64,000 nt of DNA from Malacoraja senta (GCA_038087875.1 CM075990.1:4032001-4096000), one strand, 5' to 3'. Shown: positions 10,705-51,100, numbered from the stretch's first letter. Notes: generated by a model not told the origin, from the letters alone. Program-made: numbers and translations.

Positions 10705-12959
10705 ACCCGTTCCTTCTCTCCAGAGATGCTGCCTGTTACTCCAGCATTTTGTGTCTATCTTCGATTTAAACCAGCATCTGCAGTTCCTTCCTACACATTA
10801 CATCACCTGGCGTTAAATTACATGGTGTTCCTTACATGGCATTGCATTACATGCATGGCTGCAGCAAGCCTAGAAATAAAGTATCTGTGTTACGGAGTGG
10901 TAAGAAAGTCCGCCTCAGTCTCCTGTCCTCAGACAACATCCTGATCAATATCCTTTTGTTGAAACTATAAACGCTTTACAACATTCACAAATCACATCTC
11001 AGAGCTCAGAAGACAGACAGTGGGTCTGCACTGGGCTTCACATAATTCCCCAATTCATTATTTTTTCCCTTTAAGCCCTGCAAATGTCTGCTAAATTATT
11101 CTCTCCCAGTTATTGATTGTCCAATAACAATGGCAAGATCCAAATCAGCGGGCAAGACAGCCAAGCTGAGCACATCTTCCTTTGTAAGTACAGGATTTCA
11201 CTTTAATACTTGTCCGTGCATTTCACTGTTAATAATTTAGTAATTGATGTAATGGATTAGCACTCCGAATGCTGAGGTTTGCATGCTGGCAGCAGACGCC
11301 ATGGCACTGTGCGGTCAGCTTGGTAAACCTGCTGCCTCACAGCGCCAGGGACCCCAGTTAGATCCTGACTACAGATGCTGTCTGTGCGGAGTTTGTATGC
11401 TCTCCCTGTGACCGCCTGGGTTTTCTCTGGGTGCTCCGGTTCCCTCCCACACTCCAAAGACGTAAAGGTTTGTAGATCTGAAGAAGGGTCTCGACCCGAA
11501 ACGTCGCCCATTCCTTCTCTCCAGAGATGCTGCCTGGCCCGCTGAGTTACTCCAGCATTTTGTGTCTCCCTTCGATTTAAACTGGCATCTGCAGTTCCTT
11601 CCTACAGGTTTGTAGGTTAATTGGCTTAGGTATAATTGTCAAATGATCCCTAGTGTGTGTAGGATACCACTAGTGTACGTGGTGATTGTTGGTCAGTGTA
11701 GACTCGATGGGCCAAAGTGTCTTTTTCCTCGCTGTATCTCTAAAGTGTAAAGTCAAAAAGCTGGTAGAGATGCTGCCTCACAGCGCCAGAGACCTGGGTC
11801 TTTGATCCTGACCTCAGGTGCTGTCTGTGTGGAGTTTGCATGTTCTTCCTGTGACCGCGTGAGTTTCCTCCGGGTGCTCTATTTCCTCCCACCACCTCCC
11901 AAAGATGTGCGGGTTTGCAATTGGCTTCTGTAAAATTGCCGCTGGTGTGTAGGGAGTGGATGAGAAAGTGGGATAACATAGAACTAGTGTGAACAGGTGG
12001 TTGCTGGTCAGTGTGGACTTGGTGGCCGAAGGACCTGTTTCCGTGCTGTATCTTTAAACTTAGCCAAGTTTAGTTTGGGGCTTGGGCTGCAAGGTAAGCC
12101 TGACACAGCACACACAGGGATGGAAACCAGTCCGGGAAAGATTTTGGAGGAAGAGCAGCCTTTCTCAGGGGTTTGGGCAGCCCAAGAAGTTACTGTCTAC
12201 CTAGGTCACAGCCACTTTAGACTTTAGATTTCTGAGAGACACAGCACGGAAACAGGCCCTTCGGCCCACTGAAGCCACACCGACCAGCGATCACCCTGTA
12301 CGCCAACACTATCCTGCACACTGGGGGTAATTTGCAAATTCTACCAAAGCCACTTAACCTACAAACCTGAGGTGGACACAAAATGCTGGAGTAACACAGC
12401 GAGACAGGCAGCATCTCTGGAGAGAAGGAATGGGTGATGTTTTGGGTCGGGACCCATCTTCAGACTGATGTCAGGGGAGTGGGCGGGACAGAGATGGAAT
12501 GTAGTCGGAGACAGTAAGACTAGTGGGGGAAGCGGGAGGGGATGGAGAGAGAGGGAAAGCAAGGGCTATCTGAAGTTGGAGAAGTCAATGTTCATACCGC
12601 TGGGGTGTAACCTACCCAAGCAAAATATGAGGTGCTGTTCCTCCAATTTGCGTTGGGCCTCTCTGACAATGGAGGAGGCCCAGGACAGAAAGGTCAGATT
12701 GGGAATGGGAGGGGGAGTTGAAGCGCTGTATCATATATTCAGCACTCTGTTTATTTTCTTTTTATACGGTGTGGGTGGCGCAGCAGTAGAGCTACTGCCT
12801 CACAGCGCCAGAGACCCGGGTTCGATCCTGACTGCGGGTGCTGTCTGTACGGAGTTTGTACGTTCTCCCCGTGAGCGTTTTATTCTGAGATCTTCGGTTT
12901 CTTCCCACATTCCAAAGACGTACAGGTTTGTAGGTTGGTATAAATGTAAATTGTCCCTA

Positions 12960-13670
12960 GTCAAGTCGAGTCAAGTTTATTCGACACATGCGCATACGAG
13001 ATGTGCAGTGAAATGAAAAAGTGGCAATGCTCGCGGATTGTGCAAAAAAACTAAACAGAATGGAACCGGATCACATATTCACAAATTACATATTTGTGGG
13101 AGGAAAAAACAGCAATTTAAAAAAGACACCACATAACAGTAGATTGGTTCAGTAAGTTAGTCCCTGGTGAGATAGGAGTTTACAGTCCGAATGGCCTCTG
13201 GGAAGAAACTCCTTCTCATCCTCTCCGTTCTCACAGCATGGCAACGGAGGCGTTTGCCTGACCGTAGCAGCTGGAACAGTCCGTTGCAGGGGTGGAAGGG
13301 GTTTCCCATGATCCTATTGGCTCTGGAGTGGCACCTCCTGATGTATAGTTCCTGCAGAGGGGCGAGTGAAGTTCCCATAGTGCGTTCGGCCGAACGCACT
13401 ACTCTCTGCAGAGCCTTCTTGTCCTGGGCAGAGCAGTTCCCAAACCAGATTGTGATGTTTCCGGACAAGATGCTTTCCACAGCCGCTGAGTAGAAGCACT
13501 GGAGGATCCTCAGAGACACTCTGAATTTCCTCAATTGCCTGAGGTGGTAAAGGCGCTGCCTTGCCTTACTCACGAGTGCTGCAGCATGTGATGTCCATGT
13601 CAGATCCTCTGAGATGTGGACTCCCAGGTATTTAAAGCAGCTCACCCTATCCACAGTATCCCTATCCACA
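12960..13670 (-). mobile_element. Rex/Babar-like LINE 3' end inserted in an HE1-like SINE
   Basis: Open ORF 13157..13669 (FKYLGVHISEDLTW...KARQRLYHLRQLRKF...RRSFFPEAIR); short-repeat tail; SINE halves at 12770-12960 and 13671-13765. Confidence 0.88.
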
Positions 13671-14258: not shown

Positions 14259-14585
14259 CACGACCGGGATCTCGCCTGAAGTCACGTCGGGGGCATAACC
14301 GGGAGGGAGCGGTTGGAGACATTGTACATGAGGAGCAAGGGCCTGTAGGAGGGTGAACCGGGATAATGCCTCCAGTGCCATCAAGGTCGGCTGCAGGAGG
14401 CCCCCCCCCCCGCCCGGGACACAAAGATGGCCGGGCGAGGAGAGGGACGTCGGTTCGTGGGAACTGCTCCAGTACATCGAGCGCGCGGGCGGACCGGACT
14501 TTGAACGATGGCGGCGCCCGCATGTGTAATATTTGCAAAAAGAATTTCACTGTGCAGTTTTACATGCGACTAATAAAGCAACACT
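14259..14585 (+). mobile_element. Short GC-rich retroposon with 9-bp TSD GAAGCTCTT
   Basis: TSD at 14250-14258 and 14586-14594; Rex-like tail aatttcactgtgcag..atgcgactaataaa. Confidence 0.65.
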
Positions 14586-15014
14586 GAAGCTCTTGGAAAC
14601 TGTCGCAACAGAGGCATGGGTGTGAATATCCCCCGTCAGCAGCTGATTTTTCCAATGAAATCCAAGAGTCAAGAGTGTTTCGGTAACCAAGTCTCTTGGC
14701 ACATTTCCTCACATTAATAACCAACATTGGCGACTTTGCCTTATTCCGTGGCTAATCAGTGGGTTGCATCTAACCCCATTATAAGTCAAATCAGTTTAGA
14801 ATCGAGTTAAGGCAGGCTTGGAAACTGATGGCAGTGAAAATCATTGACAACAGGATGTGAAAGGCAGTCAGGAGTCGGCGAGCATTCAAGTCCTCTTTCC
14901 TGAAGCCCCACCGAGTGGCTGCATCTGTGTTGGCTTGAGTTTCAAGACCAAATGTAAATCACCGCAGGATCAAACCAAAGTTGAAAATAAATCAAACTGT
15001 GAAAAATAGCCCAA

Positions 15015-15625
15015 AACAGTGCTGGAGTAACTCAGCGGGTCAGGCAGCATCTCTGGTGAAAAAGGATGGGTGATGTTTTGGGTCTGGACCCATCTTCAGA
15101 CTGATTGTATTGGGAGGGGGGGAGAAAGATGGGAGAGAGGGGCAGGACAAAGGGTGACAGGTAATAGGTGAACGTAGGTGACAGGGGGAGGAGGGGGGTG
15201 GGGGCAGATCTTGGGCTAAAAGCCAGAGTTGAAAGAAAGTGTGAGACAGAAGGATTGAAGAGATGTGAATTGTGAAGGCGGAGGAAGGAATGTAGGTGGA
15301 AGTGGGGGAGATTAATTGGTGCCAGTCAGTTGGGGTGAAGGGGTGGTGGGGGGTATGAGAGGGGTTTGTTAGAAGTTACCTATAATTGGGGAATTTGATG
15401 TTCATGCTGTATGCTCCTCGAGGTACAGTCGCTCCAGCTTGTGTGTGGCTTCATCTGGCACTGGAGGCGGCCCAGGCCAGAAGGGTCAGAATGATTTTTC
15501 AGGGAGTAATCCAGGTTCACATGCACCTCCTCCAACCTCATCTACTGCATCTGGTGTTCCCTGGCGTGGCCTCCTGTACATCGCAAGTCCAAGCATAGAC
15601 TTGGTGACCATTTCACTCGGAAACA
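15015..15625. mobile_element. Penelope-like remnant with internal inversion, including GIY-YIG motif
   Basis: 15516-15585 (+) reads FTCTSSNLIYCIWCS / GLLYI (frameshifted); 15015-15490 is the PLE 3' end/terminal repeat on the minus strand. Confidence 0.7.
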
Positions 15626-16005
15626 AAGTCTTCCATTAAATATCTAATTGAACAAGGTCTTGATCACTGGTGAATCTGGTCTGATTGCTAAGGGGACTTG
15701 GGGACTTTGATTGGAGATAGTCGTCTCCAGGTCTCACTGATGGTTGGCAGTTTCTTGGAAATGACTACCCCAGAGTGATGGTAGCTGCCCTAAACTCCAC
15801 TAACAGAATATCTAGATCTGTGTGTGACCATGTGGTTGATATCGTGTTGGATTCCCATACCAGCAAGTTCCCGCCTACACAAAGGCCCATCAGCAGGAGT
15901 GGGTTCTGAGGTACTGTACCACATCAGTTCCTTAGACAAAGTCCAGTGTCCTCAATGGAGTGGAGGACAATACAGTGGCATAGTGGTGGAGTTGCTGCCT
16001 TACAG

Positions 16006-19700: not shown

Positions 19701-20513
19701 CCACTTTTACTTTTCACCTTGCTACCTATTGCTTCTACCCTCATTTTACACCCCTCTGTCTCTACGCTCACACATTTAAGAAACCCTTTCCCTTTAACTC
19801 CATCCTCAACTATCCCATTCGACACCCCACCCCCCTTATTCAGTTTTAAACCACCCGTGTAGCAGTGGCAAACCTGCGTGCCAGAATGCTGGTCCCCCAC
19901 CTGTTAAGATGCAATCCGTCCCTTTTGTACAGTTCCCCCTTACTCCAAAACAGATCCCAGTGATCTAAGAATCTAAATCCCTGCCCCGTGCACCAGTTCC
20001 TCAGCCACACATTCAGGTCCCGTATCTCCCTGTTCCTGCTCTCGCCAGCACGAGGAACTGGAAGCAAACCGGAGATAACAACCCTGGAGGTCCTGCTTTT
20101 CAGCATTTTTCCGAGCTCTCTAAAGTCACGCTGCAGAATATTCATCCCCTTCTTTCCGACATTGTTTGTGCCGACATGCACTACCACTTCCGGCTGTTCA
20201 CCTTCGCCCTTGAGGATTTTCTGCACTCTGTCCATGACATCCTGGATCCTGGCACCAGGAAGGCAGCACACCATCCTTGAATCCCGTCTGTTGCCGCAGA
20301 AACCCCTGTCCGTACCTCTCACAATGGAGTCTCCCACTACAATGGCGTTGCCCGATTTTGGTTTTGGCTCAACAGCCCTATTCGCATCGCAAGCCAGTCC
20401 GCCGCTCAGTGTAAACACGTCTTCTGTCCCGACAGCTTCTAAGTGGGTGAACCTGTTCACAAGAGGTACAACACCCGGGGACGTTTGAATTCCATGCTTC
20501 CCTCCCTTTCCGT
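16753..20513 (-). mobile_element. Long CR1 LINE (3.76 kb): ORF1 SGNH esterase plus ORF2 APE endonuclease/RT, disrupted
   Basis: ORF 19846..20460 (VVGDSIVRG, HVGTN, DGLHLN); ORFs 19328..19900 and 17782..19311 (CLNARSI, GITETW, YRPP, MGDFN, SDH, DFQKAFDKVPH); (TTCTATGT)n tail; 8-bp TSD ATACTGTT at 16745-16752 and 20514-20521. Confidence 0.96.
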
Positions 20514-21129
20514 ATACTGTTCTATTCTATGCTCCAATTTAATGAACAATATGTTAACTGGCCTGGATAGAGTGGATATGGAGAGGTCATAGACTCAAAA
20601 TTAAAGGATGTACCTTTAGGAAGGAGATGAGGAATTTCTTTAGTCAGAGGGTGGTGAATCTGTGGAAGTCATTGCCACAGAAGGCTGTGGAGGTCAAGTT
20701 AATAGATATTTTTAAGGCAGAGATGAGATTCGAGGCCAAGTTAATAGATATTTTTAAGGCAGAGATAAGATTCTTGATTAGTACAGGTGTCAAGGTGAGA
20801 AGGCAGGGGAATGGGGTTATGAGGGAAAGACAGATCAGATATGATTGAATGGCAGAGTAGACTTGATGGACAAATGGGCTAATTCTGTTCCTATCACGTA
20901 TGAACTGCCCACTTCTTGTACTGCAGCCGGGCTATCAGTTCTGGCTTTCATCGGGAAAGGTTAAGACTGTTGACCTCAAGCAAGTGCCTCTCTTCTGCAG
21001 TGTTCAATTCTAAATAGGATGATTAAGCAATTAATGCGCACAATACCATTATAGTACAAATGCCAAAATACCATTGCTTTAATATAAATTAGTTTAATAT
21101 TGGCTAGATGCTGTTCGCACATTAGAAAA

Positions 21130-23984: not shown

Positions 23985-25867
23985 CTAAGAACCAAAGAGG
24001 TGATATCGTTTAATGTGTTATTTTTGAAAACTGAACATATTACTCAGAAGTTAAATAAGCACATGGGGTGGGAAATGAAGGGCATGGAGTTTTGTTTCTG
24101 TTTTGAGTTGGGTTTCAGGGAGTAGCTGAAAATTATTTCCATCAAGCAGGCAAGACAAGCAACCATACTTAAGGCGATGGGCGGCACCGAGTTGCTACCG
24201 ACAGTGCTAGACCCATGTTCGATTCTGACTATGGGTGCTGTTTTCTATGGGTGCTCTGGTTTTCTCCCACACTCCAAAGATGTACAGGTTTGTAGTTTAA
24301 TTGGCTTTGGTAAAACTGGAAATTGTCCCTGGTAGACACAAAAAGCTGGAGTAACTCAGCAGGACAGGCAGCATCTCTGGAGAGGGAATGGGTGACATTT
24401 CAGGTCGAGACCCTTCTTCAGACCTGAAATGTCACACATTCCTTCTCTCCAGAGATGCTGCCTGTCCCGCTGAGTTACTCCAGCTTTTTGTGTCTACCTT
24501 CGATTTAAACCAGCATCTGCAGTTCTTTCCTCCACTGTAAATTGTCCCTAGTGTGTAGGATGGTGTTAGCCTATGAGGATTGATGGGCCGAAGGGCCTAT
24601 TTACCCGCTGTATCTCTAAACTAAACTCATTTTTGTGAAACACCTGCTTTCATTCACTCTTAATGGCGGAATGTCAAAGATATAAAGTAGCCTATGAAAG
24701 GAACAAATTCCATGTATTCATATTACACGAACTGCAGGAAATTGAATTGAATAGATTGATGCAGGTTGTTCTTTCTGGAAATAAGGTGATCACACGATGA
24801 GCCCTGTGCCCCAATACATCGAGGAAGTAGAGTCATTGGTGAACTTTCTTTGTAATTGCCTCAGAGCTTTGAGAAAATGTGGCATGTCACCAAATACTCT
24901 GTCCAACTCCTGCAGGTGTAGGGTAGAGAGCGTACTGGTTGGTTGCATCATTCATGAGCATAGAAATCCAAATGCTCATGAATGAAGGAGGCTGCAAAAA
25001 AGTAATGGGTATTGCCTGATCCATAGTGAATTTGAAATCAAGGTAACCACTGATGGTAAAAACGTATAGTTCTGCTTTTTTAGACTACTACATTAAACAT
25101 ATTTATCTTGCCTCAGTCCTTAGCGAGTATTTATATAATACAAGCTCCTTTAGAAATCTATACAACTTTGCTTTGGTAGATGGCTATTGGTGAAATGACC
25201 AGTAGTAGCTAAATGATATAATTTAGAGATACAGCATGGAAACAGACCCTTCGGCTCACCGAGTCCACACCGACCAGCGATCATCCTACTTACTAAGGAC
25301 AATTTACAGAAGCCAATTAACCTACAAACCTGTACATCTTTGGAATGTGGGAGGTAACCAAAGCACCCGGAAAAAACTCATGCAGTCAGGGTGAGAACGT
25401 GCAAACTCCATACAGACAGCATAGCTGTGCCACTGTGTATGTGAATCATGAGCAGTTTTTTCCCCCACAACCTTATTGGAGGGGTTTGGTGTGTAATTAG
25501 CCTGGATACCGAGAACAGAATTCATCTTTCAACTGTCTCCAGTGTACCTTTTCAAGTGACTAAGACAACTATCATAGATAAGACTGGAAATTCAGTATGA
25601 AGAAAAATTAAATGCACAATGCACTCTTATTATCTCTATCAAGTCAAATGCACATTAGATGGTTAAAATGCCAATATCAGTCAAAATATGTTATGCTACA
25701 GTAGTGCCAGCTGATTTAAAGGAGAACTAAAATATTGAAATCAACTTTGTAATAAGGTTTGGCTGGAGGGTTGCGGCTCACAACAGCTAAACAGTTTATA
25801 AAGATGATGAGAGAATAACAACTACTCATGGAGAGATCAAAGTCACATCACCTTGTTACAGGCTTAC

Positions 25868-27189: not shown

Positions 27190-29283
27190 TCTTAATGGTC
27201 ATGGTCACAGATGCCCAGAAGTGGCAAGACAGGTGGAACGAGTGGTGGAGGTGGTAATATGGCACATTTCCCTTCACAAGTCAGGCAGAGAATATCAGTC
27301 TGAAGAAGGGTCTCGACCCAAAACGTCACCCATTCCTTCTCTCCTGAGATGCTGCCTGTCCCGCTGAGTTACCCCAGCATTTTGTGTCTACTTTGGATTT
27401 AAACCAGCATCTGCAATTCTTTCCTACACAGAGAATATAAAAGTTGGGGCATCATATAGTGACTTTACAAAACAATGGTTCGACCATGTTTGGAGTATTG
27501 TGTGCAGCTCTGGTCACAATACTACTGGAAAGATGCGATTGTTCCAGAGAGTATGCAGGGGAGATTCACCAGAATGTTTAAGAAGGAGCTGCGGATGCTG
27601 GTTTATGCCGAAGTTGACACGGTGCTGGAGTTACTCAGCGGGCTGGGCAGCATCTCTGGGGGAAAAAGGATGGGTGACGTTTCAGGCCCTTCTGAAGAAG
27701 GATTCCAACCCGTTTCAGGCCCTTCATCCTTTTTCTCCAAAGATGCTGCTTGACCTGCTGAGTTACTCCAGTACTATGTGTACATCTTCATCAGGATGCT
27801 GCCAGGATTGGAACACTTTTGTTATCAGCAGTGACTGGATATGCTGGGCTTATTTTCACTGGAGTGAAAGAGGCTGAGAACGGATTTAATAGGGGGTGTA
27901 TCAAATTATAAGAGGCATAGTTCGAGGAGATTGCCAGAATCTCTCTTTAAGGTGAGGGGGAAAGATTTAATAGGACCCCGAGCGGCAACTTTTTATTTTT
28001 ACACAAAGATTGGTAGATATGGTACAAGCTGCCAGAGGAGATGGTTGAGGCTTTAAAAACATTTGCACAGGTACATGGATAGGATAGGCTTAGAGGAATA
28101 AGGGCCAAATGCAGGCAGGTAGGACTAGTGTAGATGGGGCATGTTGGTCGGCATGGACAAGTTGGGCTGAAGGGCCTGTGTCCACGCTGTACGAGTCGAT
28201 GACCATGAATCTTTCACAATCAAAAACAAAGGGGCATCGTTTCAGGGTAAGAGGAAGGAGATTTAAAGCAGATGTACACTCAGCTATAGATGGTAGTGCA
28301 ATCAGATACAATTATTACGTTTAAAAAGCAGTTCGACAGACACCTCAACAGGCTAGGCACAGAAAGATACAGATCTGATGAAGGTAAATGGGATTAGGGT
28401 CGACAGATAATTCAGTCAGCAAGATTGTGGTGGACTGAGGGGGTCTGTCTCTGTGTTGACTCTATAATATCCAACAACTGCAGGAACATTAAATATTTAA
28501 GAAAGAACTGCAGATGCTGGAAAAATCAAAGGTACACAAAAGTGCTGGAGAAACTCAGTGGGTGAGGCAGCATCTATGGAGCGAAGGAATAGGTGACGTT
28601 TCGGGTCTCAACCCGCTGAGTTTCTCCAGCACTTTTGTCTACCTTCGGAACATTTAATATGATCATTTCTGAGAAGCAGTTGTTGAGGGCCATTTGAGGA
28701 ACAGAAATCAGGTCACACATCGTTAGGTACCCAATCTAAACTTTGCAGCAAGTTTAAATTTACTTTAAACAGTGTAACTGTGGTCATTTGAGGGAGTGCA
28801 GCGTAGGTTTACAAGGTTAATTCCCGGGATGGCGGGACTGTCATATGCTGAGAGAATGGAACAGCTGGGCTTGTACACTCTGGAGTTTAGAAGGATGAGA
28901 GGGAATCTAATTGAAACATATAAGATTGTTAAGGGTTTGGACACGCTAGAGGCAGGAAACATGTTCCCGATTTTGGGAGAGTCCAGAACCAGGTGCCACA
29001 GTTCAAGAATAAGGAGTAAGCCATGTAGAACGGAGACGAGGAAACACTTTTTCCCACAGAGAGTTGTGAGTCTGTGGAATTCTCTGCCTCAGAGGGTGGT
29101 GGAGGCCAGTTCTCTGGATACTTTCAAGAGAGAGCTAGATAGGGCTCTTAAAGATAGCAGAGTCAGGGGATATGGGGAGAAGGCAGGAAAGGGGTATTGA
29201 TTAGGGATGAACAGCCATGATCACATTGAATGGCGGTGCTGGCTCGACGGGCCAAATGGCCCACTCCTGCACCTATTGTCTAT
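27190..29283 (+). mobile_element. Cluster of CR1 3' fragments with nested Penelope-derived mini-insertions
   Basis: MVRPCLEYCVQLW (27475..), ORF 28796..29200 (QRRFTRLIPG...RVVSLWNSLP). Confidence 0.85.
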
Positions 29284-30772: not shown

Positions 30773-33534
30773 CTTTTGGAGGGATATGGGCTAAAAGCAG
30801 GCAGGCGGGTCTAGTATAGATGGGACAAGTTGGTCGGCGTGAGCAAGTGGGCCGAAGGGCCTGTTTCCACGCTGTATGATTCTATGCCATATTATCACTA
30901 AGTTAAAATTGTAGTACTGACCGTTCAGCGCAGGCCATCTTCTCTGCACAAATTAATTTATAAGTAGAAACGAGGAACTGCAGATGCTGGTTAATGTACA
31001 AAAGGACGTAAAGTATTAGAGAAACTCAGCAGGTCAAGCAGCATCTCTGGAGAAAGTGGATAGGTGACGTTTCGGGTCGAGACCCTTCTTCAGATGCATG
31101 TCTAGAAGTTTATATACCTTTATCAGGTCACCCCTCAGCCTTCTCCTCTCCAGGAAACTCCTAGTCTATCTAATCTCCTTATAACTTCAGTGCTCCAATC
31201 CTGGCACCATCTTGGTGAATCATCCCAGTGAATCTCCTCTGCATTCACAATGCAATCACTTTCTTTCCAGTGTGGCGATCTAAACTGCACATAATACTCC
31301 AAGAGTGGCAAATTAATCAAAATTAGCTAAGTTGGCAATTCAAAAAAATGTCAATGCTAGAAATCTGAAATAATGCTGCTGCCTCAGCAAGGCCACAAGC
31401 ATAATCAAGGACCAGTCTCACCCCTGTCACTCCCTCTTCTCCCCTCTCCCATTAGGCAAGAGGTACAGAAGTTTGAAAACGCACACCTCCAGATTCAGGG
31501 ACAGATTATTTCCCGGCTATTATCAGGCAACTGAAAGGTCCTATCATATGCTAGAACGTGGTCCTGACCTCCCAGCCACCTTATTGGAAACTTTTGGACT
31601 TTAATGTTATATCTTTGCACTAAATATTGTACCCTTAATCCATGATCCTTGATCTTTAACCTTGCACGTCTTGATTGTATTACATATAGTCTTTACTTTG
31701 ACTGGATACCACGCAAACAAAAGATTTCCACTGTATCTCGGTACACGTTACAATAATGAAATACACTAAGACCAAAAATGCTGGACCATTCATGAGACAG
31801 CATCCTCAGCCTGCTGCCTGACTACTGGGCATTTAGAGCATTTTCAGTCTTTAATAAAGGTCAATGGGAGTCTGTCCACAAGATTGCCACTGGTTGTGTC
31901 CCACCAAGCTCAGTACCTTCAGCCTCGTTTCATGTGATGTGTGTTAATAGCTTAGCGTCAATTGTAGGGAGAACAATATCGAAGATTGCCAACAAAAACT
32001 GGCTGCAATGGTGTACAGTGAGGAAGAAAGTATTAGATGACAGGAAGATATCGATGTTCTGGTCAGTCGGGCAGAAAAATTGTAAATAGAAAATAGAGAA
32101 GTGTACAGTAATTCAATTGAGGAAGTAGAACAAAAGGAACATCGAACAAATGGGTAGCGGTGGAGTTGCTGCCTCACAGCGTCAGCTTGGTCTCACCTGG
32201 ACTGTGTGTCCGCAGGTTCAGCAGGCCAAGGCAACAGAGGTCAAATGGTTTAAAGGTTATATTGCACACTTTCGTCTAATTTCATGGACTGTAGGAGCTG
32301 GGATATGGGTGCAGGCCAGAACTATATCGCACACTAATCAAGCCAGAGCATCAATACTTTAATCTGTTCCAGCCACCACATTGCAGAAAAGACAATGATT
32401 GCACTGGAAGCTTCGCAAGATTAACAGAAACGGAAAATGATGTGTGATCAAGATCACATCAACTGGAACAGTAGCAAGATTGCATTATCATGTGGGGCTC
32501 AGATAGAATACACAATAAAATTATTTTTCCATGAAATGACCTAACACCAGGTAGCACAAATTTGAAGAAATTGGTAGAATTAGCATTCTAGGGAAAGGAT
32601 TTAGTCAAGCAAAGCAGAATTACAAAAGTTATACGTGCTAGACAACATTGTTATTTTAACACCAGAAGAAGACGATGTGAATAATGTGAGTATACTGGTG
32701 ATGGAAGGATAAATATCCGGCACTGGGTCTTTAGTTTAGTTTCTTATTGCCACGTGCACCAAGGTGCAGTGAAAAGCTGTGTCGGAAGGAACTGCAGATG
32801 CTAGTTCACACCGAAGATGGGCACAAAATGCTGGAGTAACTCAGCGGGTCAGGCAGCATCTCTGAAGAAAGGGATTAGGTGATGTTTCGGGTCGAAACCC
32901 TTCAGGAATTGGTGATGGTATTGACCCAAAACGTCACCTTTTCCTTTTCTCCAGAGATGCTGCCTGACCCGCTGAGTTACTCTGGCATTTTGTGTCCATC
33001 TACAGTGAAAAGCTTCGTGTTGCACGCTAACCAGTCAGCGAAAAAGTCTATACATGATGCACTTTGTGCAGAGGATCACACAAATCAATTTGAAAGACCC
33101 TGCAAACTCGCCAAAAAGCATGGAAGTCTATTTTGATTGACTTAACGCAGCCGGGATTTGGCACTGCAGGAGCAACAAGGAGATTTTAAAGAAGTTGTCG
33201 TTTTGTGTCGATGTAACTGCAGTATGGAAATGTTGACGTGCGAAGTTAGGAGCAGACCTGAGGTGTATTATTCAGTTTAGTTTATTGTCACGTGTACCGA
33301 GGTACAGTGAAAAGCTTTTGTTGCGTGCTAACCAGCCGGCAGAAAGACAACACATTACAATCGAGCCATTAACAGTGTAGATTTTAAAAAGTGGAGCGGT
33401 TGAAATGTAATTGTGGATCTGCTTCTGCGGAATAGCCGTCAGGGGGTTGGGCACCATCCTGGAAGTCAATGTGCAGCAGTAAAACAGTTACATAGAGTAC
33501 AACTAATTTCAAAACAAAAGTGGAATTCACTTAC

Positions 33535-34725: not shown

Positions 34726-36201
34726 CTTTTGCAAAAACAAAACAAAATACAAATGAAAGAATATCACTCAGGAACACATTTTCCTCCAGTTTAAAAGAAG
34801 GAACAATTTAACAAGTAGAAATTAAATGTAATACAACTATAATCTCTAGTAAAAATATTTTTTAAACTCTGTTCTTGATTCGAGGGTGGTGAATGTGTGG
34901 AATTCATTGCCATAGACAGCTGTGGAGGCCGTTAATAGGCATTTTTAAGGCAGAGATAGATAGATACTTGATCAGTGAGGGTGTCAGGGAGAAGGCAGGA
35001 GAATGGGGTTGAGAGGGAAGATGGATCAGCTGTAATTAAATGGCAGAGTAGACTTGATGGGCCAAATGGCCTAATTCTTCTCCTATAACTAATGAATTTA
35101 TGATTCACTCACTGGATTTTGCCATCAATGGGAAAAAATAGATCCAAAACCCATCGAGTAAAACGTTGAAAGCTGTTCTCCAGTTTATAGGAACTGCTTT
35201 GCCACCCATGGGAATTTGAGGATGTTGGCCACGGCTCCAAAAAGAATTTAGTCAAAACAATAATACAGTAACAGATTGCAAAATAAAGATTGTGTAAAGA
35301 GATGAACAGGAACACACGACTGTTGATTTCTTTGTCAATACCAGATGAATACCTGTGGGATTTTAACAAATGTTTTCAGTCGCTCTGCTCCGCTGGCCCA
35401 AAGGGCCGAACGACCAACTCCTGCACCTATTCTCTATGTTTCGATGGGATAAACCAGCATCTGGAGTTCACTTCCCACACACCACACTTCACTGCTGTGT
35501 TAACTGGGCTTATTTAGAGCAGCAATTGTTTTCAATGCCCTCAAACCGAACAAGAGAAAAGGTACAAAACGATCCTCGTAGCTTGTCTAACCTCCCAGCT
35601 GAAAGAGCACTTTGAATGTTTAGCAAAGACAAATCCAAGCTTGACAAGATAAATTTGAGTCCAACCTCCAACCATCGCTTAGACATCCAGACGATGATCA
35701 AGTAGGGCATTACTACTTCAGACATTACATTTCATTTAATTCCTAGTCCAATATAACTAGTCTCCACATTTGTTGCACTCATTTTTAGCAAATAAATTGT
35801 TATTTCCTCATTTTCCATATGGCACAATTTCCTCTTGTAATTTAAATTTCCTGTTATCTTCTGGTCACAAATCTTTGAATCCTTTCAAAGCACACCCTCT
35901 TCACCCTTTAATGACTCTTTACATTTTATGCTCAATTCTTTTTCTCAGAGCTACTCTTGCTAATTTTACCATTTATTGTCATAACAATCAAATTAACCTA
36001 AAATAAAATTGATCATTCAAACTCCAATATACTGAAGGATGATTCGTGATTGGCTTTCGCCCCAGGTCTTGTTTAATTAAGTAAAGGAAGCAGCAATGAT
36101 GGGGATCTATTGCTGTAGGAAGGAACTGTCTGAAGAAGGGTCTCGACCCGAAACGTCACCCATTCTTTCTATCCGGACATGCTGCCTGTCCCGCTGAGTT
36201 A

Positions 36202-36531
36202 AAGCCCTGTCCCACGGTATGAGTTCATTCCAAGAGTTCTCCCGAGTTTGCCCTGATTTGAACTCGGAGATTTACGGTAATGGCCACTTGTCGGTAGTCG
36301 GGGCTCTCGTGGACATTTTTCAACATGTTGAAAAATCTTCACGAATCTTCCTGTGCTTACCTGCCGTTAGCGAGTCTTCCCGAGTACCTGCCGTTAGCGT
36401 TACGAGCCGCTCAGAGACGTCCCCGAGCTCCGACGTACCCGCTACGTTCATTCTCCGTGCTTACCACGAGTTTGATTTTTTTTAAACTCGGGACAGCTCT
36501 TGGAATGAACTCGTACCGTGGGACAGGACTA
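36202..36531. mobile_element. PIF/Harbinger-like MITE (330 bp), TTA TSD
   Basis: ~48-bp TIRs (cctgtcccacggta.gagttcattccaagag...), TTA at 36199-36201 and 36532-36534; splits the repeat motif ctgagTTActccag. Confidence 0.85.
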
Positions 36532-36609
36532 TTACTCCAGCATTTTGTGTCTATCCTAGAGATATATTGTATGAGATCTAATCGGTAACTTGTTTCCCAC
36601 TGCAATTAC

Positions 36610-40900: not shown

Positions 40901-42328
40901 AGAGATACAGCGTAGATACAGGGCCTTTGCCCACCGAGTTCACGCCAATCAGCGATCATCTGTACACTAGTTCTATCCTACACACTAGGGCCAATTTACC
41001 GGCCAGTTAACCTACAACCGACCGTCTTTAGGATGGAAACCGGAGCACCTGGAGAAAGTCCACGTGGTCACAGGGAGAATGCACAAACTCCGTACAGACA
41101 GCAGGATCGAACCCGGGTCTCTGGCACGGTGAGGCAGCAACTCCACTGCTGCGCCACACTGTATAGTGTATCTCACGTGTACAACTTTGTTTCTCATTCT
41201 CCCTCATTCACTTCCATTTATTTACACTCCTCCAGACAGATCAACTATAATAACAAGCATCATCACCCTCTCTAAGATTACACCAACACCATTTGTCACC
41301 CAAACTAGGTTCACCCCCCCCCCCCCGCCATCTACACCCCTTCCGCTCCTAGTTACTTCAAACATAATCATCTCTCACTTTTCTGATTCAGTTGAAAAAT
41401 CATGAATCATAAAAATGTTAACTGTCTCTCCCCAGATGCTGTGTGTCCTGTCGACCTGCTCCAGCATTTTCCATTTTCATTTCATATTTCCAGCAATTGC
41501 AAGTTTTTGCTTTAAAATTACTCCTCAATGCTGGCTGATTTCATAGTAAGGTGGAGTTATAGGCAGGCCAGAAGTGAACAAGGAGAGGAGCAGGCAGTTT
41601 AGCAAGAATAAAAGCAAGGGAAAGAAATTAGGCGGCAAGTTATTCATTGGAATTCTAAGGCATGTGAAGAGGTCAAGCAAATATTTCTTCAAAAAACTTG
41701 AAGTAAGGATCCCTATGCACAAGTGTACAATTTCTTTAATCAGAGGGTGGTGAATCTGTGGAATTCTTTGCCACAAAAGGCTGTGGCGGCCATCAATGAA
41801 TATATTTAAGGTGGAGAGGGATACATTCTTGGTTAGTACAGGTGTCAGGGGTAATGGGGAGAAGACAGGAGAATGGGGTTGAGAGGGAAAGATAGAACAG
41901 CTACGATCGAATTGCAGACTAGTCTTGACGGCCGAATGGCCTAATTCTGCTCCTACAGCTTATGAACTGATACAACCAAAGATAACAAACAAACCTGAAG
42001 AGACAGGGTAGAGTAAGGTGAGGAAGTCTGTGGTGACAGGAACAATACTGCTAACATAGAGAAGTTTGAATCAATTTCCATGATTGAAAATTTGATTCCA
42101 CAACCCTACATCAACAGATTCCAATCCCATCAGCTGATTAATAGCACCAATGCTCACGTCTTCCTCAAAAGAAAACCTAGTTTCTGCCCATCAACAAAGC
42201 TATTTCATCAACAGTCATAGGTGGTGTTCATCATCATTCATCAAGCTTGCTGAAGAAAGGAGATAGCCAAGTTAACGAATAAAGAGAAGACAATTACATT
42301 TTCCTTAAAGTTGGCACTCTTTACTTAC

Positions 42329-42904: not shown

Positions 42905-45900
42905 CTATGTATTAAAAAAGGAGTATTAAAGGCAAGATAAGAGAGCGTCATGGTGCATCCCATTCATAATCAGGCTGTTTCACTCGCACTGCTTCCTTGT
43001 GTCTTTGCCAACTACCACAAATGTCAGCAAGGACTTTATTGGGTCACGAACAAGTGTAGGTTAATTGGCCTCCCCGCCTCTGGTGTGTAGGGAATGGATG
43101 AGAAAGTTGGATAACATAGAACTGGTGTCAGGGTGATCGTTGGTTCAGCGTGGGCTGAAGGGCCTATTTCCACGCTGTATCTCTAACAGTAGATCGATCT
43201 AATCTGAGAGAGAATATTGGCTATTCCTTCCAAGACATACATATCTATTCCAAGCAAACAAGACAAAAATTGAACACAGCATGCCAGGGGCATCAACTGC
43301 ATAAACGCGATAAGAATTCTTTACCTGTATTCCAAGCACTTTGAATACAGCATCTGTGGAGGGTATGGACAGATGACGTTTCAGGTGGGGCACCTTATTC
43401 AGACTGTCGACTCATTCGTCTGTGGAAGGATCCCCACCCAAAACATTCCCTCCACTGATGCTGCCTGACACACGTGTTCCTCCAGCACTTTGTTTTTTGC
43501 CCTTTGTATTAACGGCTTGCTGAACCTGCACTCGATGATTTGTGCACCAAGAAACTCATGCTCCACTGACGACCGTATCTCCAAAGTAGACCTTTGATTT
43601 TCCGGCACCCTTGGTTCCAGAACCTCGCCGGATTATCCGTTTTGCCAGACCAATAATTCAACAATTTCTCTCTGACCTACTAATTATACCCGTCCTGTAT
43701 CTCTAAAGCACCATGGACTGCTTGAAACTTAAATAAAGAATTAACAGTTAACAGAGCAGTAAACCTTATCGGGACGAAAGAGCGTGCGCCATACTCTCTC
43801 ATAATTTTATCCGGATTAAAGGAAGTGACAGACCATCAGTTGCCGGAAAAATTGATAGTGGAGCTGTATTCTCTTCCAAAGTAGACAACTTTACAATACT
43901 TCAAATTACATCCCAGCTGTTATATTCATGGTCATTCACAAACATTATATATGCCTTTGTGACCAACTATGTTCTCCTCTACTTTATTTCCTGTCTGGCT
44001 GCATTTGGTCAGCAAACTTGGATACATTGACTGTCCCACTCAATCATGCCATTCACGGGAACTGAATAGTTGAGGCTCAATTATTGATCACAATATCCTT
44101 CTTCTTACAGATGATCAATCCAAGTGACCAATTTTCTCACAGAGAGTGGTGAGTCTGTGGAATTCTCTGCCTCAGAAGGCGGTGGAGGCAGGTTCTCTGG
44201 ATGCTCTCAAGAGAGCGATAGATAGGGCTCTTAAAAATAGCGGAGTCATGGGGATATGGGGAGAAGGCAGGAACGGGGTACTGATTGGGGATGATCAGCC
44301 TTGATCACATTGAATGGCGGTGCTGGCTCGAAGGGCCGAATGGCTATCGTCTATTATTCCTAATGTTTTGTAGTAACTAACTTTCAACCTTATAAATATG
44401 TCACCACCAGTTCGATAGACCTAATCTTGTGTATCGCCTTAACCGAATGCCTTAAAAAAAAAAAATACAAATGCACCACATTTCACTGGGAAACTATATA
44501 CTACGCTTTGAGTTACAAACTAAGAAGCTCTTATTTGTCACACACTATTTCCCTTTTACAAATATGTCCCTTCATATCAATTTCTCAACTGCCCCATTAA
44601 CCAATTAGGGCGACATACTGGCGCAGTAGAGTTGCTGCCTTATAGCGCCAGAGTTCAATCCTGACTACGGCTATGGTGGATGTTTATGTTAACTTTTATG
44701 TAGTTGTGTGTCTTGTTGCTTTTTTTTTAGTATGCCTGTATGGTAATTCGAATTTCACTGTACCTTAATTGGTACATGTGACAATAAACTGACCTTGAAA
44801 CCCTATATGTTCGGAGTTTGTACGTTCTCCCCGTGGGTTTTCTCCGGGTGCTACGGTTTCCTCCCACACTCCAAATATGTGCAGGTTTGTAGATGAATTT
44901 GACTTTGGTAAACATTGTAAATTGTCCCTAACCTGTAGGATAGTGCTAGTGTACGAGCATCTGAAGGGCCCATCTCCACGCTGTATCACTAAACTGAACT
45001 AAAGAAAACCACAACTCAGTGAGAGACTGCAGTGTTTTCTCTGCTACTTATATCAGGGTAACTGGCCAGAGGCTTCACCATTCTCACACTCCCTCTTTTC
45101 AGATCATTCTGAAATGCACAAAATGCTAAAGATCAAGGCAAAAGCGTGCAGCAACTCCGCAGCCACCAATTAAAATTCAAGCAAGTGGGTCATTAATTTC
45201 CCCACTTTATTGCCTTATTGCTATTTTCATAATGGCATTGCTACTTTTTTTTGAAGTTCTTGAATGCATTTGAGTGTATGAATCTGTATTTCTCATCAAT
45301 GCCCGTGCCACTGCCTTCATCTCCATTATAATTTTACCAGCTTCCTGCATTAATTTTGTTAATCACTTTTCTGCAAAACCAGTGAAGCTTTTACAATCTA
45401 CCGTTATTGCCTATTCACTCTCATTCTATTTTATGTTAATATGTTGGTCAGCACATACTGTATAATATGCAGACACAAAATGCTGGAGTAACTCAGAGGG
45501 TGAGGCAGCATCTATGGAGAGAAGGAATGGGTGACATTTCGGGTCGAGATCCTTCTTCAGACTGAGGAATTCAAACTGTATAATACATGCATTGGATGGG
45601 GAAGGAAACAAGAGGAGAAAATTAAATTCTGCACACAACTGAGGTTAAGGTTCCTTCTAAAAAGCTTTTGTAGTACACTGTAATTATCACCTGAGGGATT
45701 AAGTCAGCACTTCAGAAAGAACCTACGTAGCAAAGGTGTGCAGTTTGCTCCAAAAACCACTAACATGTGCTCAATGGTTTGAAAGCATTTAGCAGTGGCT
45801 TCTGCAAGGGGTTGGGAGAGGAAAAAGCAATGGGGTGCCTCAACATGATTTGCATGGCAAGAGTTTAAACAAAGGGAAATGAGTTTTAGGTTAGTTTAGA

Positions 45901-48180: not shown

Positions 48181-51100
48181 TTACCCAAATGCACCATTTT
48201 TCAATTTTACCAAGCCAATTAGCCTACAAACCTGTACGTCTTTGGAGTGTGGGAGGAAACCGGAGCACGTGGAGAACACCCACAGGTCACAGGGAGAACA
48301 TACAGACAATCACAATCAATCACAATAATACCTTATCAGCCAAGTATGTTTCGCAACATACAAGGAATTTCATTTGCCAAGTCAGTCATATAAATAAAAA
48401 GTAACGGAACAAACAAAACACATTTTAACATAAACATCCACCAGTGACTCCTCCACATTCCTTTCTGTGATGGAAGGCAAAAAAAAAGTTCAATCTCTTC
48501 CCTTTGCTCTCCCGCAGTCGGGGGCCTCGAGCCCTCCGTTGACGGGATGATCTTGACTCCGTAGCCGGCGTCCGGCCCTCCGCGTTGAGGCGATCAGCTC
48601 CTGCATCGGGGGGATGTCAGCTCCCCGCGCCGGACGATCGAACCTCGCATCGGGGATGGTCGAACATTGGAGCTCCCGACATCCACGACCTCTCGAGACT
48701 GCGAGCTCCCGATGTAAAGACCGCAGGCTGCAGTTGGAGCGATCCCAGGCAAGGGATCGACCCCAATGGAAGTCCGCGCCCTGCGGTGAGGCCCAAGGTC
48801 AGTCCGAGGTGGCCTCCAGCTCCATCGATGGTAGGCAGCAGAGCGACCGGAGAATGCGATCCGAAAATTAATCGCATCTCCGGCAAGGTATGAAACTGAA
48901 AAAAAAGTTTCCCCCACACGAAACAAACCGGAGAACATTTACACAAACTTAACACACACTAAAAAATTTAAAAAGACGAAAAACTGACTGTTGGCGGTGC
49001 TGCCAATCGTACGGCGCCCCTGGAGCACCCGTAGTCAGGATCGAACACGGGTCTAAGGCAGCTACTCTACCACTGAGTCACCATGCTGCCCTAGGAGTAA
49101 AAATTATCATGAGCAAAAGCTCAGTGGATCGCATTCATGGTTCCAGAGGTTGAGGGCACATCCCAATCCAGACAAGAGTATGACATCCAGTCAGATACAT
49201 TGGGCTTGCACTGGGGAAATGTCACTTTGGCATCTTGGCATGTTAACCTGGGGTGCCAGCGGCTCTCAGCTGAATTACACCCCATACTAAAGAACAACAG
49301 CAAATCAAGCTCAATTCCTAAGAAGAATGCAAAAATAAGAATTGAAAATAAGATACTGGAAACTTGAAACAAGAACAGAAAATGCTGGAAATATTCACAG
49401 AACAGGCAGTAACTGTGGAATGAAAATGAGAGTTAACAATTCTGGTTGAGGATGCTTCTCAGAACTGAGAAAAAGGAAAATAAATGTGGGTTTGAAGTTA
49501 TAGAAGGGAAGTGGTGGGAAGGATGGGCAGTTAATGAATGAATGAATGAATACTTTATTGTCATTATAACATGTAAACATGTACAACGAAATTAGAAATG
49601 CCAACCAGTCAGTGCACCATTCACACATTTTCTTAGAGCAAAAGTCTAAGATAAACAACTAAAATAAATAACATGAAAAAAAACACATTCTTCTGTCGAT
49701 TTCACAGTCCCTTTGGTGTGTAGCACACCTGTACTCATTTGGTGGATACATTAAGTGTATTTATTGCTGTGGGATAAAAACTGTTTTTGAGTCTGTTTGT
49801 CCTTGTCCTCATTGATCTGTACCGTCTGCCTGACTACAGCAGTTCAAACAGGGAGGAAAATGTCCTTTATGATCCTGGGATTTTTTGAGACAGTGGGAAC
49901 TGTGTAGGTCCTCCAAGGTGAGGAGAGGGCAGCCGATAATCTTCTGGGCGTTGTCAATAGCCCTCTGGAGCGCTTTCCTCTTAGCCACTGTGCAGCTGGT
50001 GTACCACACGCATACACAGTATGTTAAGTGAATAATTGTGAGATGTTGGAGCCAGAAATGTTGCAGGAATGGGTTGTTAATTTAGCAATTGCCCCCCCCC
50101 CCCCAACACATTCTTAGTCACGTGTGTGACAAAAATATGAAAAATTGTGGAATACATCTCTTCTAATTGTGAAAGCATTGCTTTTTGTACTGCATATATG
50201 ATCCATATTTTTTTCAAAATTTATCAAGTGAAATGTTTGTTATGCTGACGTTTGTTTAGGGTCAGAGGTCAAACATGACTGGTCACGTGTGTGACCACAG
50301 CCCGAAGCTTTTTTTTCCATAACTCCGTTTTATCGTACAAACTGTGAATTTCAAAAGCTAGAATGTTCATATCTTTAGCAGACACGTATTATAGTTCTGT
50401 AGGTAGGAAAACAGCAATGAATAAGATTAATCGCTTACGAGAATCTTTTAAAATGCATTACTTTATGTGATGCCGTCTGGCCACGTGTGTGACATGTTGG
50501 GCTCACTTTCCAAAGAATAGCCCAATTAGACAGTGGAGTGTGATAGGTTGCAAATAGCAGGTCTGGGTGTGCTCAAGGCAAATGTAAGCCGACAATACAC
50601 AGATGACATGCACCAAAAATGACCATCAGTGTGATAGTGTTATAATGAAGGGAGGGACAGCACCTCATCTGCTGTCTGGGCACATTAGAGCTTCCCAAAC
50701 TCGGTACTGAATTTTTCAACTTCCAGTAACTCGCTCTGCCTAGATCAGAGCTGGTCATACGTAGGAAGGAACTGCAGATGCTGGATTATACCGAAGGTAG
50801 ACACAAAATGCTGGAGTAACTCAGTGGGTCAGGCAGCATCTCTGGAGAAAATTAGGTGACGTTTCAGGTCGAGAGTCTAAAGAATGGTCTCAACCAAAAA
50901 CATCACCTATTTCTTTTCTCCAGAGATTCATCCTGACCCGCTGAGTTACTCCAGCATTTTGTGCCTATCTTCAGAACTGGTCATGTTTAGTGCAAGTCAC
51001 CCGTCTCTGAAATTGATTCAGTATTTAGCCGTCGCCATTTGCAAACTCTAACCAGTTATTTACAACTCGGCACATTTCTTTGTTGCTCTCCAGTCCAACA

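Follow-up and report, generated by a model that had tools for sequence, protein, structure and literature searches.

The 130-nt module that recurs through the window (the whole stretch of skate DNA analysed, 64 kb) is the 3' end, with the hammerhead, of Penelope-like elements (PLEs) that are Neptune-type by their homologues; the insertions that contain it are genuine, and the short ones are end stumps of such elements. Inverted ends, tails and non-autonomous PLEs are already known. Many of the short copies end sharply at the same 5' position, immediately ahead of the hammerhead, which may mark the start of the element RNA.

Insertions and target-site duplications

The 38 HMM hits to the module family in the window correspond to 27 insertions (Table 1); a weak hit at 35435-35471 had been discarded before the count, and the hit at 36532 was fused with that at 36129. 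The six elements named in the preliminary description are among the 27, and the family is denser in the window than that list. All six were recovered in place with their direct repeats, which form target-site duplications (TSDs) of 10-15 bp. In an unbiased flank search, in which 26 insertions were scored and 650 mismatched flank pairs served as the null, TSD scores of at least 10 were obtained for nine insertions, including all six named elements, as against 1 of the 650 mismatched pairs. The insertions at 11476 and 24331 both lie inside a SINE, and five further window copies of this SINE carry each target once, thus representing paralogous empty sites. Retrotransposition with TSDs, as originally proposed, is upheld by these results. 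A TSD search extended to 800 nt upstream gave nothing convincing at 30973, 52758, 9926, 10676, 12363 and 15012.

The bounds proposed for the two 130-bp units were reproduced: the C of the hammerhead core lies 2 and 4 nt past their starts, and they end in cctac(a). No tRNA gene was detected in the window by ARAGORN, in agreement with the reported lack of a tRNA head. The six are indeed insertions, as described, but 24331, 28497, 32779 and 50759 are head-to-head inverted pairs rather than single units, and both of their outer ends are PLE 3' ends. The two arms of 24331 are each other's best match (96%).

Table 1. Insertions of the module family in the window. Module positions are numbered with the T of TCTGAAGA as +1.
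Type	Position	Strand	Module extent and features
Single stump	11476..11605	+	-1 to +130; hammerhead core intact, helix I 1 bp; in SINE; TSD 11466-11475 / 11606-11615
Single stump	27296..27428	+	-3 to +131; hammerhead GAAA changed to AAAA; TSD 27286-27295 / 27429-27438
Head-to-head inverted insertion	24331..24534	.	Reverse arm +95 to -1, forward +17 to +131; in SINE; 15-bp TSD
Inverted insertion	28497..28646	.	Reverse arm from +130, forward to +98 with internal deletion; lacks CUGAAGA box; 14-bp TSD
Inverted insertion	32779..33002	.	Reverse arm from +132, forward to +97; junction filler ~11 nt; 12-bp TSD
Inverted insertion	50759..50970	.	Reverse arm +132 to +14, forward -2 to +96; 14-bp TSD
Inverted insertion without hammerhead	8284..8406	.	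123 bp; arm starts +70 and +59; 13-bp TSD
Single tail-less stump	45468..45571	-	-10 to +95; 14-bp TSD
Single stump	52758..52890	-	-5 to +130; TSD not found
Single stump, older subfamily	30973..31094	-	+1 to ~+124; core intact; TSD not found
Long 5'-truncated PLE copy	57261..57614	-	354 bp, to -299; GIY-YIG C-terminus 57411-57614 (P0001); tail-less; perfect 13-bp TSD
Long copy	12363..12727	-	To -263; GIY-YIG C-terminus; tail-less
Long copy	9590..10036	+	To ~-335; differing pyrimidine-rich spacer; GIY-YIG C-terminus
Long copy	10543..10796	+	To -133; tail; private 10-nt deletion; reference for contig alignment
Long copy	15012..15640	-	To ~-390; plus inverted non-overlapping GIY-YIG segment ~15492-15640
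Copy cut inside hammerhead	9405..9516	+	~+20 to +130; weak 8-bp TSD
Inverted insertion, older	27575..27788	.	One tail; TSD unclear
Inverted insertion	36115..36558	.	14-nt reverse tail piece and arm +1 to +97; interrupted by later insertion ~36202-36530
Inverted insertion, old	43348..43512	.	Arm ends -3 and -1
Inverted insertion	56668..56800	.	18-nt reverse tail piece
Inverted insertion	60547..60732	.	Tail-less on both arms; arms grouped in tree (97/92)
Inverted insertion	61445..61620	.	SINE sequence cuts forward arm at +60
Long copy, older subfamily	55034..55373	+	To ~-219
Old copy	57819..58020	-	Pyrimidine-rich upstream, to ~-85 by eye
Very old copy	41286..41508	+	Pyrimidine-rich upstream; boundary by eye
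Very old copy	49340..49533	-	Pyrimidine-rich upstream; boundary by eye
Partial copy	21..121	-	~+25 to +125; adjoins SINE tail; 5' end ambiguous

Penelope identity of the module

Nine copies extend upstream of the module, and five of these enter GIY-YIG coding sequence, at its C-terminus. The translation P0001 matches proteins with GIY-YIG Pfam hits under the curated cutoff (E 0.001-0.008), and via P0004 14 proteins of 750-950 aa were reached, 12 of which have a YxDD-type reverse transcriptase (RT) pattern; tblastn detected no PLE RT sequence in the window. The Penelope origin claimed earlier is borne out, since the long copies contain the module and run into GIY-YIG sequence, and the claimed dependence on PLE RT and GIY-YIG nuclease is rated as supported. 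A CX2-5CxxC finger is present in the homologues P0003 and P0004 (C-terminal identity 69-70%), in a region that lies outside the window copies. This finger is a Neptune marker but is common to Nematis, and the Neptune assignment, made from the homologues, is tentative.

The module of 11476 contains an open frame of 43 codons, and the same frame is broken in 27296. As it matched none of the N-termini of 14 full-length homologues and gave a single weak hit among 11 candidates, a coding role for the module is unsupported. In metagenome contigs, the exact 28-nt pattern had no match, and a protein scan yielded two loci, both distant and short, which were left out of the analysis.

Hammerhead and RNA structure

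Five intact hammerhead cores are found in the window, all minimal type I, with a stem II of 5 bp, a helix I of 1-3 bp and a predicted cleavage site after +29. Among the six named elements, all core boxes are kept only in 11476 and in one arm of 24331, the other four having no intact core. No match was obtained with Rfam at the gathering score, and folds were no more stable than those of shuffled sequences (z -1.7 to +0.2). The consensus fold of 18 arms comprised seven pairs at -1.2 kcal/mol, one of them with two-sided change, and conserved structure is unsupported. In the model proposed below, the hammerhead would be a passenger; the anole PLE remains able to insert when its ribozyme is mutated (Frangieh et al., 2024, PMC11167929).

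Preferred 5' and 3' ends

Of 36 arms, 14 end between -10 and +2, i.e., within 12 nt just before the hammerhead (0.087 per nt vs 0.007 overall); the 5' ends were placed by visual inspection, and paired arms from a single insertion are not independent. Such clustering was reached in none of 200,000 constant-hazard simulations; this test used 36 of the 38 arms, the tail-only arms of 36115 and 56668, added by eye, being excluded. For non-inverted copies alone, 5 of 16 end at the boundary (P=0.019). No 5' end lies between -11 and -60; the nine long copies have scattered ends, from -70 to -390, and 13 arms end within the module.

At the other side, the 14 TSD-defined 3' ends are equally divided between +95-98 and +130-135. 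Exactly one tail is present in all five TSD-defined inverted insertions and in eight of the nine assessable ones, which favors priming from both nicked strands. The inverted junctions all differ, no two insertions sharing one. Microhomology of 1-3 nt is present at 11 of 14 junctions. The inverted form and the optional tail of 30-40 nt are published PLE features (Arkhipova et al., 2013, PMC3846280; Craig et al., 2021, PMC8557442; Frangieh et al., 2024, PMC11167929).

When contigs were aligned to the long copy at 10543..10796, each of the four runs (1447, 1674, 356, and 4 contigs) had its top 5' loose end at the boundary base. A private mismatch at 10674 inflates this peak, as do other subfamilies with differing upstream sequence. 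About 10 nt of such upstream sequence is included in the loose-end consensus. Agreement at this end was 0.33-0.38 in the three large runs and equally low at the 3' flanks (0.34-0.36). Summed contig depth rises about 10-fold (run X1) to 30-fold (run X3) across the boundary; since such depth does not measure copy number and gives no ranking of parts, this step is not counted as evidence. The sequencing runs say nothing on expression, and run X18 is marked 'probably DNA'. Taken over the window arms and the contigs of the four runs, the proposed check of end positions gave preferred ends at both sides, and the preferred short unit of the preliminary description therefore stands, with non-random 5' ends and two fixed 3' ends.

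The sharp 5' stop leads us to predict the start of the RNA there, a start that may lie at the boundary as judged from DNA ends. The sequence TCAGTC just before the hammerhead fits the Drosophila initiator in seven of eight copies; speaking against such a start, four 5' ends lie upstream of the initiator A at -2 (-3, -3, -5 and -10). Positions +18 to +27 fit the MTE at 8 of 10 positions (background 0.24%), although this MTE/DPE match overlaps hammerhead stem II and was sought after the fact. Penelope itself has an internal Inr/DPE promoter (PMC2377424).

A model for stump formation

On balance, the stumps probably arise at each insertion directly from the PLE machinery and not from a separate master, the 5' end of the RNA setting the stop. 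The GIY-YIG nuclease would nick both strands 10-15 bp apart, as the TSDs suggest; two-strand nicking has been observed in vitro for the anole PLE, as has internal RT initiation (Frangieh et al., 2024, PMC11167929). The RT would initiate inside the RNA at +95-98 or +130-135 of the module, where the 3' ends fall. With one copy of the module at each end of PLE RNA, a start in the 3' copy would yield ordinary 5'-truncated copies reaching the GIY-YIG gene, and one in the 5' copy would run off the RNA 5' end after 100-135 nt, like retroviral strong-stop cDNA. The initiator-like TCAGTC that immediately precedes the hammerhead would form this RNA end. Both nicked strands may then prime, one per start site, to give cDNAs joined head to head with one tail; a short or absent second cDNA would leave a simple stump, as suggested by arms of 0, 14, 18, 28 and up to 130 nt.

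Against this model, the boundary reads just as well as a 3' splice site, with a pyrimidine tract and CAG in all long subfamilies and a GT donor at the GIY-YIG stop codon in four of five long copies. That the RT stops there on ordinary PLE RNA, at the 3' splice site of a spliced or lariat template or at the base of a hairpin, after a start in the 3' module copy, is nevertheless unlikely. The spacer is intron-like, being variable among subfamilies between conserved sides, TCTG at +1 is able to pair with CAGA near +48, and the boundary coincides with the end of an intron that, in the available accounts of D. virilis, lies at hammerhead helix I, the transcription start being 121 nt upstream (Cervera and de la Pena, 2014, PMC4209133; PMC2377424). 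However, a spliced template would lose the AG and gain an upstream exon, whereas many stumps retain AG, CAG or ATCAG and have no upstream exon in common; no donor-to-acceptor joint is found among the 15 listed of 340 joint rows. In addition, the TGAC motif is merely 7-8 nt from the AG, a distance short for a branch point, and the stability of the folds does not exceed that of shuffles. Plain random 5' truncation with no preferred unit is extremely improbable: heavy 5' truncation is known for PLEs (Craig et al., 2021, PMC8557442), and the long copies and the arms ending inside the module behave in this manner, but it is already contradicted by the 5' ends clustered in window and contigs alike.

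Could the stumps instead propagate themselves, as a SINE-like parasite of PLEs? A 130-bp stump would then be transcribed by Pol II into its flank and recopied in trans, without terminator or poly(A), given its own initiator, downstream promoter motifs (sequence matches) and internal RT start. This is rather unlikely, even if it agrees with the preferred unit in arms and contigs, with the ratio of stumps and inverted arms to long copies (29 vs 9), and with published evidence that having PLE terminal repeats is enough to be mobilised in trans (Arkhipova et al., 2013, PMC3846280) and that non-autonomous PLEs such as MRC1 exist (Craig et al., 2021, PMC8557442). A single clade was rejected for the five stumps (p-AU 0.016) and for the short and inverted copies together (0.0006), in a tree of 31 short rows that excludes arms of fewer than 65 model positions and is still compatible with several small stump-only lineages. 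At least three sequence groups are distinguished among the short copies, every group lying near long or inverted copies; no junction recurs, and the initiator is absent from two of the five stumps (11476 and 30973, starting at -1 or +1). Private changes common to both arms in 24331 and 60547 would be explained by a decayed source copy, but also by one RNA template or gene conversion. It is doubtful that the module is the smallest self-propagating PLE parasite and ranks among the most abundant short repeats in skates, its 5' end set by an internal Pol II promoter overlapping the hammerhead and its 3' end by RT start sites; if it were, stumps would re-transpose in trans without tRNA head, terminator, poly(A) or ribozyme cleavage.

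The independent retrozyme-like family of the preliminary description did not hold up, given the lack of a clade, the 354-bp GIY-YIG copy with the same type of TSD and the 123-bp TSD insertion without hammerhead. It is very improbable that the units are non-LTR retrozymes, i.e., monomers of an RNA that cleaves itself, circularises and is copied by PLE RT. They do contain a type I hammerhead of minimal form, a preprint reports, in its available text, retrozymes of PLE-end origin from one chondrichthyan (Li et al., 2026, bioRxiv 10.64898/2026.07.22.740005), the tail end is joined to the boundary in about 300 contigs in each of two runs, and the hammerhead is duplicated in 17 and 10 contigs. Nonetheless, the spacing is indeterminate in nine of the ten tail-to-boundary joint rows listed, so that these joints possibly reflect neighbouring insertions, and none of ten TRF rows for the window represents a tandem array. 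The unit begins about 30 nt upstream of the site of cleavage, whereas a self-cleaved monomer would begin there, and it stops at RT start sites, so it is not a cleavage product; the short helix I, the unpermuted ribozyme, the broken cores and the insertion of anole ribozyme mutants also speak against a retrozyme.

Comparison with known systems

The 2024 in vitro study leaves the later steps of PLE insertion unvalidated (Frangieh et al., 2024, PMC11167929), and head-to-head forms have been ascribed to self-priming that uses an antisense template (Arkhipova et al., 2013, PMC3846280). Skate stumps produced directly by the PLE machinery, abundant and short enough to be read whole, would record, at genome scale, both RT starts, the cut stagger and the cDNA end point. 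The sharp 5' stop was not found in the accessible text of the literature searched, the inverted form and tails being otherwise published; preprint supplements (species list, consensus sequences) may bear on its novelty.

Insertions of EN+ PLEs share with the skate copies head-to-head inverted ends, a 30-40-nt tail at one end, TSDs of ~8-10 bp or more, heavy 5' truncation, a hammerhead near the 3' end and GIY-YIG at the C-terminus (Arkhipova et al., 2013, PMC3846280; Craig et al., 2021, PMC8557442). Unlike them, the skate insertions mostly comprise the terminal 100-135 nt, number 27 per 64 kb and have TSDs of 10-15 bp, and a sharp 5' stop before the hammerhead is not described in the available parts of those accounts. 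Poseidon_Ac (PAc) of the green anole similarly has, in vitro, two internal RT starts about a tail apart, 100-130 nt past the hammerhead start, with both strands cleaved and extended and the ribozyme dispensable (Frangieh et al., 2024, PMC11167929). PAc belongs to the Penelope/Poseidon clade, with an ORF from stem II, whereas the skate family is Neptune-type by its homologues and its module frame matches no N-terminus among the 14; PAc needed no microhomology, in contrast to most skate junctions.

The minimal hammerheads of metazoan PLEs have the same bulged base before stem II and palindromic two-base helix III, and occur as single motifs and as pairs on opposite strands, spaced by 100-700 bp, which the authors interpret as truncated PLEs; in its accessible part, this survey does not name chondrichthyans among the genomes or analyse insertion boundaries (Cervera and de la Pena, 2014, PMC4209133). 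MRC1 and other non-autonomous Chlamys PLEs are likewise non-coding and have a 3' end in common with an autonomous PLE, but they are described as discrete families, often head-to-tail multimers (Craig et al., 2021, PMC8557442), and the skate stumps did not qualify as a family. Finally, non-LTR retrozymes are also non-coding, with a type I hammerhead, kinship to PLE terminal repeats, presence in a chondrichthyan and dispersed monomers, and are defined by a head-to-tail tandem arrangement in which two or more units have a complete ribozyme and circular RNA is produced (PMC7761336; Li et al., 2026, bioRxiv 10.64898/2026.07.22.740005). The skate units, in contrast, are single or head-to-head, bounded by RT starts and equipped with minimal, mostly broken ribozymes, and they should be annotated as fragments of PLEs rather than SINEs, MITEs or retrozymes.

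Identity of the Module

The hammerhead-bearing module of about 130 nt, numbered here from the T of TCTGAAGA as +1, is preceded by a pyrimidine-rich spacer in nine single copies, here termed long copies, which extend upstream of the module, and in five of these nine it continues into the end of a GIY-YIG-type reading frame. The Penelope origin that the preliminary description had proposed for the short elements is thus borne out. The nearest protein homologues of the frame are from Leucoraja erinacea (70-74% identical); the GIY-YIG Pfam matches of its closest homologues fall below the curated cutoff, and two of these homologues harbor a CX4CX2C finger, which has been described as a mark of the Neptune and Nematis Penelope-like elements (PLEs) (PMC8557442). 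With one finger-bearing homologue as the query, 14 proteins of 750-950 aa were retrieved, and an RT YxDD-type pattern is present in 12. No PLE RT was found within the window. Because the long copies run into a GIY-YIG frame whose homologues carry the finger, the module is identified, on sequence grounds, as the 3' terminus of a PLE, which is probably of the Neptune type. It is common to at least four subfamilies, among which the spacer differs.

Insertion Sites and 3' Ends

The 38 matches to a profile built from three copies correspond to 27 insertions in the window, 16 single and 11 inverted. The six elements named in the preliminary description, together with their direct repeats, lie exactly where it had placed them. 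In a flank search, 9 of 26 insertions, including all six, reached a target-site duplication (TSD) score of at least 10, vs. 1 of 650 mismatched flank pairs. Both 11476 and 24331 interrupt a SINE, and their repeats are true duplications, since five additional SINE copies of this kind within the window contain each target once. Long copy 12363 has its 3' end against SINE sequence at the same AGGTTTGTAG site as the 11476 insertion (11606), and the 24331 insertion is located approximately 25 nt farther into this SINE; a target preference is possible.

The 14 TSD-fixed 3' ends fall into two classes of seven, at +95, 95, 95, 96, 96, 97, and 98 and at +130, 130, 131, 131, 132, 132, and 135, which represent absence and presence of an optional PLE tail of 30-40 nt. 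In the anole element, RT is described as starting at two internal sites, one on either side of the tail (PMC11167929). When contigs were aligned to a tailed copy, the most frequent 3' loose ends were at 10797-10799, and the short end was absent among the ends listed. In 11 of 14 junctions, 1-3 nt are common to the junction and the next bases of the template (mean 1.2; P=0.0001 vs. random flanks), in a test based on one reference copy and on ends curated by eye. The module, including its oldest copies, contains the motif CCAGCAT twice, at +77-83 and +108-114, 31 nt apart (11552 and 11583 of the window are an example). Both motifs are able to pair with one and the same upstream strand, and they precede the two 3' ends by 18-21 and 24-26 nt, respectively. 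Two alternative CCAGCAT folds, which folding supports weakly, might set two RT starts.

Clustered 5' Ends and Inverted Insertions

The 5' ends of the 36 arms (single module copies, two per inverted insertion) are clustered rather than random. Two lie between +97 and +31, 11 between +30 and +3, 14 between +2 and -10, none between -11 and -60, and nine upstream of -60. Within the 12-nt interval from +2 to -10, the rate is 0.087 per nt vs. 0.007 overall, a cluster matched by none of 200,000 constant-rate simulations; among single copies only, 5 of 16 end there (P=0.019). Contigs of four sequencing runs, two from the species of the window and two from relatives, were aligned to the copy at 10548-10835, and in each run the top 5' loose end was 10675, the G at -1 (1447, 1674, 356, and 4 contigs in the rows listed, some events being uncounted). 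This peak pools nearby ends through a private mismatch of the reference at -2, and other subfamilies are clipped there too; in the three large runs, loose letters at 10675 agreed at 0.33-0.38, a level similar to that of 3' flanks. The preferred short unit of the preliminary description therefore stands.

A head-to-head arrangement, with 3' ends at both outer ends, is seen in four of the six named elements. All five inverted insertions with TSDs combine one long and one short 3' end, and of the nine in which tails could be assessed, eight have one tail, one has none, and none has two. The junctions all differ, and the mirror half must therefore be built anew at each insertion, where both strands would prime reverse transcription. 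The second arm measures from 14 nt up to full length, a range that links simple stumps, i.e., copies of the terminal module only, with palindromes. Private changes are common to both arms in 24331 and in 60547; three other arm pairs do not group. The patch at 27712-27725 may be read as a template switch or as gene conversion within the palindrome. At 15012-15640, the inverted segment is non-overlapping, whereas the arms overlap in the small palindromes; the former arrangement presumably resembles L1 twin-priming inversions.

Origin of the 5' Boundary

The bases at the boundary, where stumps stop just before the hammerhead, are TCAGTC in seven of eight copies checked, which is the Drosophila initiator. 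Scored against a published core-promoter consensus (PMC5580651) and counted from the initiator A, positions +18 to +27 match the MTE at 8 of 10 bases, and positions +28 to +32 agree with the DPE at 4 of 5, scores equaled by 0.24 and 17% of window positions, respectively. Penelope is described as having an internal promoter that includes an Inr and a DPE (PMC2377424). We infer that transcription probably starts at the boundary; reverse transcription would then initiate inside the 5' copy of the module and would run off its end within 100-135 nt. These bases would also make a good 3' splice site, and four of five long copies have a GT donor at their GIY-YIG stop; in D. virilis an intron is described as ending at hammerhead helix I (PMC4209133). 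An origin of the stumps from spliced templates is made less likely by the facts that they retain the AG and have no upstream exon in common.

The preliminary description had regarded the short elements as an independent, retrozyme-like family. Their ancestry is mixed: the five stumps that stop at the boundary have their nearest relatives among long or inverted copies, and these belong to different subfamilies. Grouping the five as one clade was rejected (p-AU 0.016), as was separating all short from all long copies (0.0006), both on a weakly supported tree (1 of 28 branches starred); an independent family is thus not upheld. A perfect TSD of 13 bp flanks a copy of 354 bp that includes coding sequence. 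An insertion of 123 bp, likewise flanked by a 13-bp TSD, is devoid of a hammerhead. Retrozymes are defined, in the sources consulted, by tandems with complete ribozymes and by circular RNA (bioRxiv 10.64898/2026.07.22.740005; PMC7761336). No tandem array of the module was found in the window, whose five intact hammerhead cores have a helix I of 1-3 bp; cores are broken in four of the six named elements, and the unit starts approximately 30 nt before the ribozyme cleavage site. Identity of the units as non-LTR retrozyme monomers is very unlikely. In its favor, about 300 contigs per large run join the tail end to the boundary, with the spacing given in one of ten rows, and tail-to-tail joints are absent among the 15 joint rows listed. 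Outside the window, the genome may contain true head-to-tail dimers.

In contigs aligned to 10548-10835, some joints (17 and 10 contigs) lead from 10708 or 10704 to 10675 again across 5-9 intervening letters. They amount to a tandem duplication of the hammerhead core, a possible source of the dimer fold required by minimal hammerheads. One contig of the run X18 contains a tail-to-boundary joint across 15 letters at a depth of 157, whereas the remaining listed contigs of that run have depths of 5-26.

Other Features of the Window

PLE insertions between the host-gene exons would be intronic, and inverted ones would give rise to hairpins in the pre-mRNA. Many 3' fragments of the LINE are found elsewhere in the window.

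Features of the window and of the module
Feature	Position	Strand	Description
Minimal hammerhead	module +2 to +29		followed by the region where reverse transcription starts
Named single elements	11476; 27296		
Named inverted elements	24331; 28497; 32779; 50759		
Long copies reaching the frame end	9590; 10543; 12363; 15012; 57261		
Long copy with inversion	15012-15640		inverted upstream GIY-YIG segment
14-nt patch	27712-27725		in forward arm of an inverted insertion, copied from the reverse-arm junction
Insertion of ~330 bp	36202-36530		terminal inverted repeats, TTA-type duplication; interrupts an inverted PLE stump; presumably a Harbinger-type MITE
Host gene exons	61984-62391; 33466-34767	minus	ubiquitin-like domain (Pfam E 0.007) and long exon; which we take to be probably ZFAND4
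CR1/L2-type LINE, near full-length	16845-20526	minus	APE and RT domains; upstream frame presumably esterase-like
Inverted repeat	47146-47510		two arms of 139 nt with 92% complementarity, separated by 87 nt; no relation to the PLE module
Assembly gap, 200 N	2587-2786		adjoins a very G+C-rich stretch
Module-like fragment	~2540-2586		hammerhead-module-like, seems to adjoin the gap; no profile match there

Relation to Known Elements

In the open literature on Penelope/Neptune, hammerhead, retrozyme, and shark or skate topics, most subscription journals being outside its scope, no paper was found on stumps or a fixed 5' stop; a repeat so abundant is probably catalogued already, Repbase and Dfam lying beyond this coverage. 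Published PLEs are described with inverted repeats, a tail on one end, and TSDs of 8-10 bp (PMC3846280; PMC8557442). The anatomy of the present elements is that of known PLEs; they are a variant in that the 5' stop is fixed and that stumps predominate.
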